DNA of 64,000 nt from the NCBI RefSeq assembly GCF_965641715.1, contig NZ_OZ282453.1. The stretch is one strand, 5' to 3'. Origin of the DNA: Escherichia coli (GTDB lineage Bacteria; Pseudomonadota; Gammaproteobacteria; Enterobacterales; Enterobacteriaceae). Under the pieces are notes generated by a model, which was not told the origin of the DNA, ran no database searches, and worked only from the letters and a program-made list of their open reading frames with translations. Position 1 is the first letter of the stretch. Every line of letters begins with the position of its first letter. A program made the position numbers and the translations under genes. Below, in pieces: positions 3,060-55,442 of the stretch.

Positions 3060-3923
3060 TTAGCTTGCGACGGCCATCCCCACGGTCATATGCAAACCAT
3101 AGAATACGCCGCGACCGATTAATTCCCCTGCCAGAAGCAGAATGAATGAGACGGATAGTAGCGGAACCGCAGGCTGATAACCTTTTAGCTGTGGTGCAAT
3201 CCACAAGCACAGGGCAACGGCCAAAAGCACGATCCGCCAGGACATCAGCGCACCATAGTCCGGCACCAGCGCTGCAGCCTGCTGCACAGAACTATGAATA
3301 GTTGCCAGCTCTGTGCCCTGCATCACTGACATCACGCCACTCACCACCAGTGCCAGTACAGAAATGGCTGGCAGCAGACGCATCGCCCAGCCATCGACGC
3401 CAGCCAGACTCAGCAACAGGTAACCCAGTAACGGGCCGCCCATGAACATCGTCAGGAAGAAGCCCATCGGCGTCCAGATGCTGTACCAGGTCGGAACGGT
3501 ATCAATGCTGTTATAGACACGCACCATCATCCAGACAAAGACGACGCCAAGAACCATCGTCACCACCAGCCATAGCGTACGCAATGCCGGTGACAGCTTT
3601 TTCAGCATTGCCAGCAACCAGCCGATGCCACCTACAGCAAAAAAGATCGAACCGCTGGCGATTTCGTTACTGAGTGCTGAAGCCCCTACCCGGTTGAGCG
3701 AGTTAAAGGCGCGCATCGGTGAACCAAGATGGAGCATAGAGGCGATAAAGCCAATGCCCATCAGCACCCATAAGCCAAACATGCAGGCGATAACACGCTG
3801 CTGGGTTTCTGCTCGCAGGTCGCCTTTGAGCAGCGCCAAAGCCAGAACGATAAAACCACCCGCCACACATTGCCCGAAGACCGTGAAGATCATCAGCGGC
3901 CATTCATGCCATCCACTTCCCAT
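3060..3923 (-). CDS. dmsC: DMSO reductase membrane anchor subunit DmsC
   Basis: Start placed at MGSGWHEWPLMIFTVFGQ (287 aa), directly after the dmsB stop; the track ORF has an in-frame upstream extension. Confidence 0.9.
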   Translation of the reverse strand: MGSGWHEWPLMIFTVFGQCVAGGFIVLALALLKGDLRAETQQRVIACMFGLWVLMGIGFIASMLHLGSPMRAFNSLNRVGASALSNEIASGSIFFAVGGIGWLLAMLKKLSPALRTLWLVVTMVLGVVFVWMMVRVYNSIDTVPTWYSIWTPMGFFLTMFMGGPLLGYLLLSLAGVDGWAMRLLPAISVLALVVSGVMSVMQGTELATIHSSVQQAAALVPDYGALMSWRIVLLAVALCLWIAPQLKGYQPAVPLLSVSFILLLAGELIGRGVFYGLHMTVGMAVAS

Positions 3924-50585: not shown

Positions 50586-50595
50586 TTATTCATTT

Positions 50596-50622
50596 GCCGG
50601 AGTGGGCGAACACCCACTCCGG
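50596..50622. terminator. Hairpin between convergent artJ and the sulfatase gene
   Basis: gccggagtggg-cgaaca-cccactccggc, an 11-bp perfect stem. Confidence 0.6.
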
Positions 50623-51861
50623 CAAAATCACTTCTCTACGCTAATCCCAGGCGCTGAAACTGCTCTGGCGGCGCATCATTATCTTTCATCAACTGAATCA
50701 GCAACGCGATCATCCGGGACTCGATCACATCATCATGAATCGGATGTAGCTGCTGCGGATCGTTTTGCAGATCAAACAGCAAATGACCAAACTGATTCAA
50801 CCCCTTATATTTTTCCTGTGCCGGGATGCGTAATACCTGTAACCCTTTGGTAAAACGAAACGGTGGGGCCAGCGATAAAGCCCGCATCTCATCCACCGGA
50901 TAGCGGCTGTTCATTTTGCAGGACATCAACGTGTAGTTGGCAATATCATCCTCACGCCCCGGCAGCGCTGCACGCATATACACATAACGCCCATCAGTTA
51001 CGTTAGCATGACCACTGAAAACACCAAACATCGCCGAGCTGCGTACTGGTTCATCGTGACTGACCGTTTTCGCCAGCGGTTGCCCCTGCACATCGGGCGG
51101 CACTGGCTGTTGAAAAAAGTCATACAACGTTGGCGCCCAGTCGATCATTTGTACCAGTGCCTGTCGCCGCTCTCCTTTTACACCACTGCGCGGGTCCCAG
51201 ATAAACAACGGATTATTGGCAACTTCGTTGTAATAAGGCATCTGGTTTTTCGCCCACCAGCCATGCTCACCGAGTAAAAAGCCGTGGTCAGTGCCGACAA
51301 TCAGCATGGTATCTCGCCACAGATCGTGCTCATCCATCAGGTCGAGAATGCGCCCCAGGTTGCGATCGCACATCGACACCAGCGAACGATACCGGCAACG
51401 GATGTGCTCCACGGCCTCGTCGCTTTCCTGCACCCGGCCACGCGGCCAGTCATAATGCGGTCCATCCCAGTTATCTTCATACAAGGAAAGATACTCTTCC
51501 GTTGTGTGAAACGGCTCGTGCGGATCAAACGTTTCGATCTGCAATAACCAGTTATCTTCCGCGTGATTTTTGTGGATAAAGGCACAGCCTGCATCAAACA
51601 CTTTAGTTTGTGGAAAATCTGCTTCCTGCTGAATATATTCCCGGTTTGCCCAGTCATGGCGCCACAGACCAGAAACACCGCCACCGGTCTGCTTTTGCGG
51701 CACCCGTAGCACCTCGGGAATAGGCGGTTGCGCAACGCTTGCATGCCAGTGATCGCCTTCCTGTCCGCGCACAATCTCCCACGAACTGTAGCGATTATGA
51801 TAATTCCCGCCGCCATCTTCCCAGTAATGCAAATGATCGCTTATCAGGTGGGTATAGATCC

Positions 51862-53200
51862 CATAAGCGCTAACTTAAGGGTTGAACCATCTGAAGAATG
51901 CGACGCCTCGGTGCCTCGTTAAGACGATGCCTCGCGTTCTTCAATTGCGTTTTGTAGGCTGTCAGGGATACTGTCCCACGAATGGCCACCTGTAAGCTCC
52001 AGATGACCATTTTTGTTATTCTCCACAACGAGTTAGTTCTTCTTTTCGGATCCGGCACTTCTGGGGGGGAAATCCAGCGATGGCTGGATTATGTCGTCAA
52101 TTAAAAATGCGGCGAGTAGATTAGCAAATATCCACGCTTTCGCGAGTTCAGGTTCCTTTGCACGCAAAGCATCCAGGTGCAGCAAACTTTTGAGCCGCTT
52201 AAAAGCCAGTTCAATTTGCCATCGCAGACGGTAACAATCAGCCACTTGCTCTGCTGAATATTCATCTTCCGGTAATGATGTTAGCAATAGCACATGGCCC
52301 GCTGCTTCCAGCGTTTCCGCCTGAACTACTCGTCCTTTTCGACGATTCTCGCTGAGCAGTCGGGTTTTACTGATTAATGCTTTTTCGGGAGGAAGTGATA
52401 CGGCAATGAGACGTGCCGGAAAGGGAGCTCCGGCTTTTTTATTACCTGAATTGCCTATCATTACAGTGGTTTCACCGTTCTTACCGCAATCCAGCCCGCG
52501 CAGAAAACCCATCATGTCAAAGCGCATTCCTTCTGCAGTTAACCAGCGCAATCCTCGCCAGTGAACCCGGACGATATAATCAGCTTCTCCAAAAGCAAGT
52601 GAGCGGATACATTCGGGACGCGAACCGAATCCCCGGTCAGCAATGCGTATCTCGTCTGCCGTTTGCGCAAATCGGTCCAGCCGTTCAGCGTCTCTGCTGT
52701 CGGTTAGCTCAAAATCAGTGAACTGACAGGTATGAGGATCATATCCCATATGTAGTCGCCATTCAGCGCTGCCGCCCCCGGGCGCACTGATTGCTGTTCC
52801 ATCGACAAGACGCAATCTCTTTCCGCTTGTACAACCCGTAACTGCGGCGCGTACAGCAAGTGTTTGTGCGGCAAGTATGCCAAACCAGTCGGCGGCATTC
52901 CGCAGCCGCTTCAGGAGAGCCACGTCAGATAATGTTGCAACGTCATGGAGCTGAGCCCATGCAGTGACTTCACGTAATGACATCCCCCCGGGGCCGTAAG
53001 CCAGCCCCAGACGTAGCAGAGTTGCAGCATCACGAATTTCGCGGCGGCGGGTTAGAGCCCCGGCATTACGTGCCGAAGTATCCAGTTCTTCGGGCTTACC
53101 AATATGGGCCAGAATTGCTGACCAGTTATCGTGAGAGTAATTCATCGGCACGTTAAATCATATCAGGCGTAATACCACAACCCTTAAGTTAGCGCTTATG
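51862..53200 (-). mobile_element. IS186 (IS4 family), complete copy with 23-bp terminal inverted repeats and a 10-bp target-site duplication
   Basis: Terminal repeats cataagcgctaacttaagggttg / caacccttaagttagcgcttatg; flanking direct repeat gtatagatcc at 51852-51861 and 53201-53210; target context ggg...ccc. Confidence 0.9.
52033..53145 (-). CDS. insL: IS186 transposase (DDE, IS4 family)
   Basis: 370 aa from MNYSHDNWSAILAHIGKPEELDTSARNAGALTRRREIRDAATLLRLGLAYGPGG..., matching the IS186 transposase. Confidence 0.9.
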   Translation of the reverse strand: MNYSHDNWSAILAHIGKPEELDTSARNAGALTRRREIRDAATLLRLGLAYGPGGMSLREVTAWAQLHDVATLSDVALLKRLRNAADWFGILAAQTLAVRAAVTGCTSGKRLRLVDGTAISAPGGGSAEWRLHMGYDPHTCQFTDFELTDSRDAERLDRFAQTADEIRIADRGFGSRPECIRSLAFGEADYIVRVHWRGLRWLTAEGMRFDMMGFLRGLDCGKNGETTVMIGNSGNKKAGAPFPARLIAVSLPPEKALISKTRLLSENRRKGRVVQAETLEAAGHVLLLTSLPEDEYSAEQVADCYRLRWQIELAFKRLKSLLHLDALRAKEPELAKAWIFANLLAAFLIDDIIQPSLDFPPRSAGSEKKN

Positions 53201-53477
53201 GTATAGATCCCCGCCTTTTTAAGCAGCTCCGGCATGGAATCGTCAAACGGTTCTAACGGCCCCCACTCCCGATGCAGGAAGTTACATCGCCCGGTATGCA
53301 ACTCCCGCCGAGCAGGCATACACGGCATACTGCCGACGTAACTGTTTTCAAAGGTGGCGGCATGAGCCGCCAGACGTTGGAAATTAGGCGCTTTGGTTAA
53401 CGCATCGCCATAAGGTGGCAGATAACGTTTATTCAGACTATCGAACAGTAGAATAATCGCTCTCATTACGCCCTACC

Positions 53478-53798
53478 TTATTGATTAATTAAATGCGGAA
53501 AATGTTGCTGAACCACTTCATAAATTTGCTGACCAATAGTTTCACCGTCCATAATATTCTCTATCGGAATCAAATATTGCCCTTGTTTCGGGTCAAGACT
53601 AACCACATCGAGTAATTTTTTGGAAATAGCAAAAATATCCGCCCAGTCGGTAAATCCGCCGACTTCACCTGCGGCGGTATGTTCCATTTCAACTTTGAAA
53701 TCATATTTGGTCAGCGCTTTTTTAACGACCGTTTGTAACATAACGCTACTGCCTACACCGTAACCACAGACAAACAGAATATTAATTGTATCTTTCAT
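53478..53798 (-). CDS. PTS EIIB component (ascorbate/galactitol-type PTS_IIB fold)
   Basis: 106 aa; N-terminal phospho-cysteine loop ILFVCGYGVGSS. Confidence 0.8.
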   Translation of the reverse strand: MKDTINILFVCGYGVGSSVMLQTVVKKALTKYDFKVEMEHTAAGEVGGFTDWADIFAISKKLLDVVSLDPKQGQYLIPIENIMDGETIGQQIYEVVQQHFPHLINQ

Positions 53799-53819: not shown

Positions 53820-55163
53820 TTAACCCGCGTAAGGACCAAGATGGAATGTTGCAGCGATAAATTTCAGAACTTCACAAATAGCAGGCCATACGGTTGCCCA
53901 GTCAAATATTCCTGTCCAGCCGACGCCATTTTCAGCAAGCCCGGTTAACGGAATAGCCCACACCGTACCGAAGGTCTGAATAATACCCAGCAAGAACGTA
54001 CAGATAATTACGGAACGGTATCCGCCCATGCGGTTTGCTAATACGCCAATTGGACCGCCAGAGAAAAACAGAGGTACAAAGCCAGGCAATACCATAATTG
54101 GGCTGTGAACCAGTAATAAGATCCCCATCGAAAAAATGGTGCCAAAAGTACAGAAGACGAAGCCTAACGTTGCGGCATTGGGTGAAAAAGGCAACAGCGC
54201 GGCGACATCGACGGCGGGAATGGCATTAGGAATAAAGCGATCCTGCCAGCCTTTAAACGAACCGTTAATTTCGCCCACCATCATGCGCACACCCTGCAGC
54301 AAAATGACCATATACATGGAGAACTGTAAGCCAAGGTTGATGATATAGATGTACCAGGGCTTGCCTTTCGCCATTAACTGGACATTATCGATACCCGTTG
54401 ATAGCAAGAAACCACCGACAAACAGCGTCATCACAATGGCGATAGCCGTTACGTTATGGTTAAAAATCGCCAGCCACCCGGGGAGTTTCAGGTTTTCAGC
54501 ATCGTGCTTTTCGGGGTCACCAAATTTATGGGCGAATTTGGAGAAAAACCACAATCCCAACATCTGGTTATGAGCAATGGTAAAACCGGCATCTTTGGTA
54601 ACTTTGGCAATGGGCTTAACAATGAGCGTGGTGGAGAACGCCCAGAATACACCCGTTAATATTCCGGCAATAATAATGGATGTAGTCCAGCTAAAACCCA
54701 GCCAAAAGACAATCAACCATAATACCGCCTGAGAATGTGAAACACCGGTATTCCCTGTCAAAAATATCCCTTTGGCACCAGTATACCGACCAAATAATAC
54801 CAGCAGCAGGTTGGTAAAAAACGCCAGTACAAATACATAACCGACATAACCAAAATTATCCCCCAACGCAATTTGCGTTGCCGCTTTCATTGCGTAGGAA
54901 TCCATTAAATATCCGTGAACACCATAGGCTTTACTTACGGCTTCTGCTACCGGTTTAAATGTTGCGGAAAACTGGAAACCACCAAATAACACCATCATTA
55001 ATCCCACCATGGCGCTGACCATGCCGGTAATAATTTTTATTGGCGATTTCTTATCAAGGGCATAACCAATACCCACCAGCAAACCAATTAAAATTGCCGG
55101 TTCAGTTAAAAACGTTTGAATAACATCTATGAATTTGGCAAACATCGTCGGAACGCCCTCCAT
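53820..55163 (-). CDS. PTS EIIC component, L-ascorbate (UlaA/SgaT) family
   Basis: About 445-aa polytopic membrane protein; segments such as LKLPGWLAIFNHNVTAIAIVMTLF resemble UlaA; start may be the second ATG (MFAKFIDV). Confidence 0.8.
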   Translation of the reverse strand: MEGVPTMFAKFIDVIQTFLTEPAILIGLLVGIGYALDKKSPIKIITGMVSAMVGLMMVLFGGFQFSATFKPVAEAVSKAYGVHGYLMDSYAMKAATQIALGDNFGYVGYVFVLAFFTNLLLVLFGRYTGAKGIFLTGNTGVSHSQAVLWLIVFWLGFSWTTSIIIAGILTGVFWAFSTTLIVKPIAKVTKDAGFTIAHNQMLGLWFFSKFAHKFGDPEKHDAENLKLPGWLAIFNHNVTAIAIVMTLFVGGFLLSTGIDNVQLMAKGKPWYIYIINLGLQFSMYMVILLQGVRMMVGEINGSFKGWQDRFIPNAIPAVDVAALLPFSPNAATLGFVFCTFGTIFSMGILLLVHSPIMVLPGFVPLFFSGGPIGVLANRMGGYRSVIICTFLLGIIQTFGTVWAIPLTGLAENGVGWTGIFDWATVWPAICEVLKFIAATFHLGPYAG

Positions 55164-55353
55164 AAGCGTACATTTCCGTTGTCAATGCATGAACCTTCTG
55201 CTGACGTTAATAATGTCTCAGGAAATTTTGTGTTTCGCTAAGCAATGCCTCTGTATGTATTCGGTAAGTGCACTGTAGTAATCAAAACAGTTCAATTAAA
55301 GATCTTATTTGATTATTTGTGATTTGATTTGCAAAAATAGAGCAATATATAAC

Positions 55354-55389
55354 CGTGATCGATCGGTTATTATTAATCGATCGATCACG
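55354..55389. promoter_or_regulatory. GATC-rich perfect inverted repeat upstream of the PTS-sulfatase operon and downstream of rlmC
   Basis: cgtgatcgatcg-N12-cgatcgatcacg (12-bp arms), containing four GATC Dam sites. Confidence 0.5.
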
Positions 55390-55442
55390 ATTATTATTTT
55401 GAGTGAATAGTTGTTGCCGAAAAATTTACTGCCGTGATGTAT

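Follow-up and report, generated by a model that had tools for sequence, protein, structure and literature searches.

A covarying hairpin in the rlmC 3' UTR of Escherichia coli and its putative role ahead of a PTS-sulfatase promoter

In strains of Escherichia coli that carry a PTS-sulfatase operon next to rlmC, the interval between the rlmC stop codon (which ends at 55443) and the start of the PTS EIIC gene contains a hairpin that has stayed paired while its arms diverged at the neutral level. The hairpin lies in a 64,000-nucleotide stretch of E. coli DNA (the window, to which all coordinates refer), where an initial annotation had correctly placed a palindrome in this interval and had compared its GATC sites with those of methylation-sensitive switches. 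We found that the stem covaries between Escherichia and Salmonella, that it is missing where the operon is not preceded by rlmC, and that it lies outside the operon transcript as defined by a published transcription start site (TSS). The reading we favour, with moderate confidence, is that a terminator or insulator hairpin at the 3' end of rlmC is followed by a CRP-type, stationary-phase promoter for the PTS genes; termination and insulation are functions that we infer from sequence comparison. On this reading the palindrome is ordinary biology that carries little weight beyond annotation, and the tempting interpretation as an epigenetic switch is removed as unsupported. The analysis also lays out, as an initial working map, the control region of an uncharacterised EIIC-EIIB-sulfatase operon, comprising the hairpin, a CRP-like site at -60.5, the -10 hexamer TACAGT and the TSS at 55265.

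Architecture of the rlmC-EIIC intergenic region

The order of genes on the minus strand is potFGHI, ybjO, rlmC (55443-56570, encoding the 23S rRNA m5U747 methyltransferase), a 279-bp intergenic region, EIIC, EIIB and the sulfatase, with artJ convergent. The hairpin starts 54 nt past the rlmC stop codon and stands 20 bp upstream of the CRP-like site. As initially annotated, the palindrome is a perfect 12-bp inverted repeat: the arms at 55354-55365 and 55378-55389, read from the sequence, are exact reverse complements, with the plus-strand letters CGTGATCGATCG and CGATCGATCACG, respectively. In the rlmC-sense RNA the 5' arm (55378-55389, minus strand) is CGTGATCGATCG and the 3' arm (55354-55365) is CGATCGATCACG, each with two GATC sites. 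The spacer (55366-55377) has the annotated length of 12 nt but is not pure A/T, since GTTATTATTAAT starts with G and is A/T at 11 of 12 positions; its sequence is not conserved and its length in Salmonella is 11 nt.

All four GATC sites assigned to the arms are present (starts at 55357, 55361, 55379 and 55383), and a fifth, at 55301, lies outside the palindrome and is specific to E. coli. Four sites in 30 bp form the densest GATC cluster of the window, in which only six perfect inverted repeats, this one included, combine arms of 12 bp or more with a spacer no longer than 20 bp. These four sites are not independent events; they belong to a single 8-mer, GATCGATC, that is mirrored by the palindrome and has two further occurrences within the window.

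With the inner pairs included, the stem measures 16 bp and closes a 4-nt loop on the plus strand; the A-rich and T-rich flanks take it to approximately 21 bp. Folding gave -26 kcal/mol for the rlmC-sense strand and -27.5 kcal/mol for the opposite strand, both much better than shuffled sequences (z-scores of -6.4 and -7.2), and stems of 17-23 bp were found in all 12 of the Escherichia/Salmonella variants folded. On the rlmC-sense strand, the stem is preceded by an A-rich tract (55390-55400, AAAATAATAAT), the core of which, AAATAATAA, is invariant in Escherichia and Salmonella, and is followed by a U/A-rich tail (55344-55353, GTTATATATT) in which TTATATATT is invariant across the same two genera. 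Read on the plus strand, positions 55390-55400 constitute a T-rich tail, ATTATTATTTT.

The hairpin occupies -89 to -124 relative to the mapped operon TSS, and is thus outside the PTS transcript and within the rlmC 3' UTR. A terminator scan of the interval from rlmC to the PTS gene identified nothing else resembling a hairpin or terminator, and rlmC has its own TSS, detected in seven of eight conditions in a map of strain EDL933 (PMC10469882). It is for these reasons that we read the hairpin as a 3'-end element of rlmC. The palindrome would encode a stem-loop in the rlmC 3' UTR that ends or caps rlmC transcripts, either by intrinsic termination, possibly bidirectional, or as a 3'-end barrier hairpin following Rho-dependent termination. 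By either route, constitutive transcription of rlmC would be kept from reaching the PTS promoter, which is used in stationary phase and probably activated by cAMP-CRP.

A stable stem-loop is indeed present downstream of the stop codon. It resembles intrinsic and bidirectional terminators in following the stop codon closely, in its A-rich upstream and, less clearly, U-rich downstream flanks, in the compensatory maintenance of its stem and in its location directly before the next promoter. It differs from intrinsic terminators in that the stem is unusually long (16-23 bp) and AU-rich, with only three G-C pairs in the 12-bp core of S. enterica, and in that the U tract of the sense strand (GUUAUAUAUU, 6 U in 10) is interrupted by A residues. 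A further difference lies in the loops of 9-11 nt in Salmonella, because of which a simple terminator scan left the Salmonella hairpins uncalled; in E. coli the same scan called the hairpin on the plus strand only, antisense to rlmC, where the tail AUUAUUAUUUU passes.

The better T-rich tail of the plus strand brings in a different role for the RNA hairpin, which might act mainly as a plus-strand (antisense) terminator, or else be an RNase III site or a 3' exonuclease barrier only. The extended stem, 21-23 bp long in all lineages and with approximately 21 bp of continuous duplex, would suit such roles, and the rlmC-proximal hairpin of K-12 likewise faces the opposite strand. In addition, the EDL933 map contains a weak antisense TSS inside the hairpin (position 1024767, minus strand of EDL933, corresponding to 55379 on the plus strand of the window), which was active in one of eight conditions, stationary phase with salt (PMC10469882). 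An antisense terminator is hard to reconcile with the location of this start inside the hairpin and its use in a single condition, and no appreciable plus-strand promoter or gene was found upstream on that strand; for an RNase III site, cleavage is not inferable from sequence. We regard a role other than rlmC termination as unlikely. A barrier hairpin after Rho-dependent termination, an RNase III site and the shielding of rlmC against antisense transcripts are variants of one idea that sequence comparison does not tell apart. A TATTAT hexamer resembling a -10 element is available in the A/T-rich loop for the antisense start at 55379.

The initial annotation had also proposed that the repeat is either the rlmC terminator or the junction of an inserted operon. 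K-12 has no insert; downstream of rlmC it carries REP elements and a G+C-rich hairpin unlike the one described here. Its sequence parts from the island haplotype at the last three codons of rlmC on one side and the last codons of artJ on the other, so that in the K-12 alignment the palindrome is located about 60 bp inside the boundary. Taken together, these observations indicate that the palindrome is neither the insertion junction nor the terminator used by strains lacking the island, while an rlmC terminator function in island-bearing strains is the role we favour. The T tract of the K-12 hairpin (3646-3670 of the K-12 locus, L003) lies on the strand opposite rlmC, and this hairpin is consequently called as a terminator for transcripts from the artJ side and not for rlmC.

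With respect to 3'-end hairpins of the REP/BIME type, the palindrome occupies the same intergenic slot as the K-12 REP downstream of rlmC and could similarly shield the rlmC 3' end from exonucleases; it differs in being single-copy and in having no REP sequence similarity. We found one locus per genome in 566 E. coli genomes, an apparent second match in each being the palindrome matching its own opposite strand, and near and distant search modes applied to 5,426 E. coli genomes returned no copies beyond the locus itself. A repetitive extragenic palindrome or MITE was ruled out on this basis. An Rfam scan of 55050-55550 produced sub-threshold chance matches only.

The 42-bp spacer between rlmC and the A-rich tract (55401-55442) evolves fast, being no more similar to S. 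enterica (52% identity) than neutral sites are. Within E. coli it exists as two strongly diverged haplotypes, one shared by the window, O145 and E. whittamii and the other by O157 and locus L004. The O157 allele looks mosaic: its spacer is of the L004 type and the remainder of its intergenic region is identical to the window, implying a recombination breakpoint adjoining the hairpin.

Compensatory change in the stem

Relatives of the locus were gathered by scanning species-representative genomes and metagenomes and by looking up homologous proteins. The operon lies 3' of rlmC in other Escherichia lineages as well as in S. enterica arizonae, diarizonae and subsp. enterica (the STM0884 locus), and in all of these rlmC-linked lineages the hairpin is found at the same place, in three sequence types. 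The Escherichia type is CGTGATCGATCG-N12-CGATCGATCACG and the S. arizonae type is CATGATCGATCG-N11-CGATCGATCATG, the first arm in diarizonae being CATAATCGATCG, with one mismatch. The type found in S. enterica subsp. enterica, TACAATCAATTG-N11-CAATTGGTTGTA (arms also given as ACAATCAATTG…CAATTGGTTGT), contains no GATC at all.

In an alignment of 11 Escherichia/Salmonella variants, representing only about three deep lineages, 99.5% of the stem cells were standard-paired and double-sided changes were present in 7 of 17 pairs. None of 500 shuffles matched these pairing and double-change values, and controls in which the partners were slid gave pairing of 15-46%. By these measures the stem is maintained through compensatory substitutions.

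The kind of change that has accumulated is informative. The arms of E. coli and S. enterica have 13 differences, and all 13 are transitions; for comparison, the transition:transversion ratio is 112:88 at third codon positions of the EIIC gene and 1:4 in the loop. Arm identity between the two species is 42-50%, with 7 of 12 arm positions differing, and this is the neutral level: identity at third positions is 0.55 in EIIC and 0.52 in rlmC. The similarity of the latter two values indicates that the insert is as old as the flanking core gene and that neutral sites are near saturation. Because pairing has been kept whereas arm identity has fallen to the neutral level, it is the pairing that has been selected and not the sequence.

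Intermediates with G-U wobbles were seen in several lineages; a tally of wobbles and mismatches by the strand on which pairing would matter was weak (about four events versus two). Compensation by transitions only, together with G-U intermediates, points to selection for pairing within a single strand of nucleic acid and not to a duplex recognised by a protein. As judged from these alignments, selection appears to act on base pairing and on the A-rich and U-rich flanks, and not on the GATC sites. The locus is thus a small, clean example of pairing kept by all-transition compensation with the loss of every GATC.

Arms can also be corrected towards symmetry by intrastrand template switching at quasi-palindromes, a known mutational mechanism that could keep them complementary without selection. 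A functionless palindrome, made symmetric in this way and simply inherited with the locus, would fit the loss of a one-arm GATC unit without obvious consequence in E. coli O55:H7 TB182A. We nevertheless consider it improbable, since the stem has persisted since the split of Escherichia and Salmonella, over which neutral sites have become about 47% diverged, and since template switching leaves the restriction of differences to transitions unexplained. The invariant A and U flanks and the consistent placement between a stop codon and the next promoter also speak against it. In TB182A (L069), the missing 4-bp unit belongs to the arm equivalent to 55378-55389, where CGATCGATCACG has become CGATCACG, leaving the hairpin asymmetric; the loss probably occurred by slippage in the tandem GATCGATC.

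Three genera, Silvania, Leclercia and Yokenella, have the operon at another place in the genome, with no rlmC upstream of it. They keep the promoter block, and the palindrome is absent from them. Yokenella has a different hairpin in the corresponding setting, 3' of a co-directional upstream kinase gene.

GATC sites and duplex binding sites

The initial annotation had likened the clustered GATC sites to the Dam-sensitive switches of pap and agn43. Under such a mechanism a regulator would compete with Dam at the palindrome, as Lrp does at pap and OxyR at agn43, to create heritable ON and OFF states of the operon. The palindrome does share with these systems a GATC cluster, the densest in the window, upstream of a regulated promoter (-89 to -124), and the GATCGATC cores do not vary within Escherichia or in S. 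arizonae and diarizonae. The comparison fails in S. enterica subsp. enterica, where Dam is present and the homologous hairpin is GATC-free: the GATC sites are dispensable there, and it is the pairing and not the sequence that is conserved. Moreover, arms that drift at the neutral rate through compensatory transitions while remaining paired are the opposite of what is expected of a sequence-specific protein site, and three genera have the promoter block but not the palindrome.

Further differences from pap and agn43 concern the candidate regulators and the operon itself. Neither the Lrp nor the OxyR consensus is matched on the palindrome, no regulator gene was found on the island or nearby, and the operon is metabolic and does not encode a phase-variable surface structure. 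Consensus patterns of Lrp, OxyR, FNR, IHF, Fis, Cra and NagC/Mlc gave nothing convincing on the palindrome, and our literature search found no methylome data for the locus. A Dam-dependent switch is accordingly very improbable, and the case argues for caution in calling Dam regulation from motifs.

The best reading of the four Escherichia GATC sites, from their arrangement, is that the stem mirrors a single GATCGATC motif and the sites arise as a by-product. It is conceivable, though very unlikely, that in Escherichia only the sites expose the hairpin or insulator to effects of methylation or SeqA, so that expression of the operon would gain an additional layer that is replication-coupled or heterogeneous. 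In the SeqA variant, hemimethylated GATC pairs 22 bp apart would recruit SeqA after replication; in the methylation variant, formation of a cruciform or hairpin could be altered. Were either the case, read-through from rlmC or access to the CRP-dependent promoter would change transiently.

A protein could in principle recognise the dyad independently of Dam, as a duplex operator or upstream activating site for an unknown dimeric factor acting on the PTS promoter from about -106. The dyad is perfect, its half-sites are about two helical turns apart, and it lies upstream of a promoter. Its outer arm bases, GTGATC…GATCAC (55355-55360 and 55383-55388), also resemble CRP half-sites and equal the two halves of the CRP consensus. 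These halves are 26 bp apart instead of 6 and are lost in Salmonella, a loss that makes the resemblance probably coincidental. Several features count against an operator of any kind: E. coli and S. enterica disagree at 7 of the 12 positions of an arm, next to a block that is 81% identical, the substitutions are all transitions and compensatory, the spacer is 12 nt long in the one and 11 nt in the other, and Silvania, Leclercia and Yokenella retain the remainder of the control region but lack the palindrome. We consider a duplex operator highly unlikely, and the rlmC 3'-end hairpin continues to be the interpretation that we prefer.

The only Lrp-like 15-mer, at 55417-55431, has one mismatch to the SELEX consensus (CAGTAAATTTTTCGG). 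The spacer that contains it is not conserved, and the O157-type allele lacks the 15-mer.

The PTS-sulfatase promoter and operon

A Cappable-seq map of EDL933 contains a single gene TSS for EIIC, at position 1024881, which was detected in four of four stationary-phase conditions and in none of four exponential-phase conditions (PMC10469882, Supplementary Tables S5 and S7). Mapped onto the window, this start is at 55265 on the minus strand. It is preceded by the -10 hexamer TACAGT (55272-55277), conserved as TAnnGT, and by a weak -35 region, TTTAAT. A sigma-70 pattern scan missed this -10 element, and its sole match, at 55420-55393, is not conserved.

The promoter lies within a conserved promoter/operator block (55270-55337, minus strand) that is shared by Escherichia, Salmonella, Silvania, Leclercia, Yokenella and two metagenomic relatives (cross-genus alignment A3, with the row for L004 disregarded). 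Identity in this block between E. coli and S. enterica is 81%, compared with a neutral level of about 53%. Two other explanations for conserved sequence near the stem were tried and rejected. A sigma-54 promoter (GG-N10-GC beside the stem) would be one base short in its spacing, and the GG is absent in S. enterica. A plus-strand small RNA consisting of the block and ending at the hairpin is contradicted both by the conservation of the block without the hairpin in three genera and by the TSS map, which identifies the block as the minus-strand operon promoter (PMC10469882).

At the upstream end of the block is the CRP-like site (55318-55333), which the initial annotation had described as TGTGA-N6-TTGCA and had linked to control of a PTS sugar operon. 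The motif is confirmed as TGTGA-TTTGAT-TTGCA, or TGCAA-ATCAAA-TCACA in the operon sense, and it matches 8 of 10 core positions of TGTGA-N6-TCACA. Matches of this quality are no more frequent in the window than chance predicts: 20 core matches with at most two mismatches were observed and 27 were expected. What supports the site is its conservation and position: the half-sites of TGCAW-N6-TCACA are kept in five genera (Escherichia, Salmonella, Silvania, Leclercia and Yokenella) while the N6 varies, and its centre, -60.5 relative to the mapped TSS, lies one base away from the lac-type member of the class I series of positions (-61.5, -71.5, -82.5 and -92.5). The CRP assignment consequently stands as a working hypothesis.

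The arrangement is reminiscent of lac P1, a class I promoter with CRP at -61.5, and of class I CRP promoters generally in its weak -35 region, its recognisable -10 element and its position before a carbohydrate PTS operon; we also count the activity of the TSS in stationary phase only as a likeness. It differs in having one poor half-site, TGCAA instead of TGTGA, and the right half-site falls within a series of AATCA repeats, spaced roughly 10 bp apart, that could belong to another factor. From the conservation of the half-sites, their position and the stationary-phase-only firing, activation by cAMP-CRP in class I mode is a reasonable hypothesis, with RpoS, or another factor acting on the AATCA repeats of the block, as possible alternative activators.

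EIIC (53820-55145, minus strand) encodes a protein of 441 amino acids in the EIIC-GAT/ascorbate-type family, and its true start is likely to be the ATG at 55145, which is preceded by the Shine-Dalgarno sequence GGAGG at 55157-55161. RefSeq (PGAP) and the list of open reading frames place the start at the ATG at 55163; the GGAGG, the relatives in other genera and the Sakai annotation favour 55145. EIIB follows at 53478-53798, and then a cytoplasmic-type sulfatase without a signal peptide (50636-53466), both on the minus strand. The sulfatase gene is split by an IS4-family insertion at 51863-53199 and is intact (493 amino acids) in O145 RM9872 and O157 EC4115. The insertion is 1,337 bp long, with a 12-bp target duplication and a transposase open reading frame at 52033-53151 (minus strand), and presumably resembles IS186, judging by its size and target duplication.

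The three-gene insert was found in 566 of 5,426 complete E. coli genomes (approximately 10%), including O157:H7, O55:H7 and O145:H28, and corresponds to STM0884-0886 in Salmonella. Our literature search found no functional paper on ECs0940-0942 and no test of the function or regulation of STM0884-0886, and the operon genes are missing from the expression tables of two EHEC papers. STM0884 is mentioned incidentally, among genes that cluster with SPI-2 expression in arrays of regulator mutants (PMC2639726) and as the location of an intragenic sigma-54 ChIP site (PMC3844500); the control region described here is the subject of neither study.

No EIIA or regulator gene was found in or right next to the operon at any enterobacterial locus examined; Yokenella has an OmpR-type two-component system directly upstream. 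An arylsulfotransferase (ASST) gene adjoins the operon in Silvania, Leclercia, a Salmonella-like contig and an Enterobacteriaceae metagenome-assembled genome (L008, L009, L065 and L067), and an AspT/YbjL-type transporter gene flanks three of these loci (L008, L009 and L067). Such neighbours hint at a shared metabolism of sulfate esters.

Two further repeats border the operon genes. Between the convergent stop codons of artJ and the sulfatase, a perfect 14-bp G+C-rich inverted repeat with TTT/AAA flanks (50593-50626) looks like a canonical bidirectional terminator, and it is unlike the artJ terminator of K-12. Within the 120-nt leader of the operon, which has otherwise diverged, TAACGTCAG (55195-55215) is conserved between E. 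coli and Salmonella and could, from its sequence, be a leader structure or attenuator; in the corresponding place the Silvania leader has AACGTCA…TGACGTT followed by a T-rich run.
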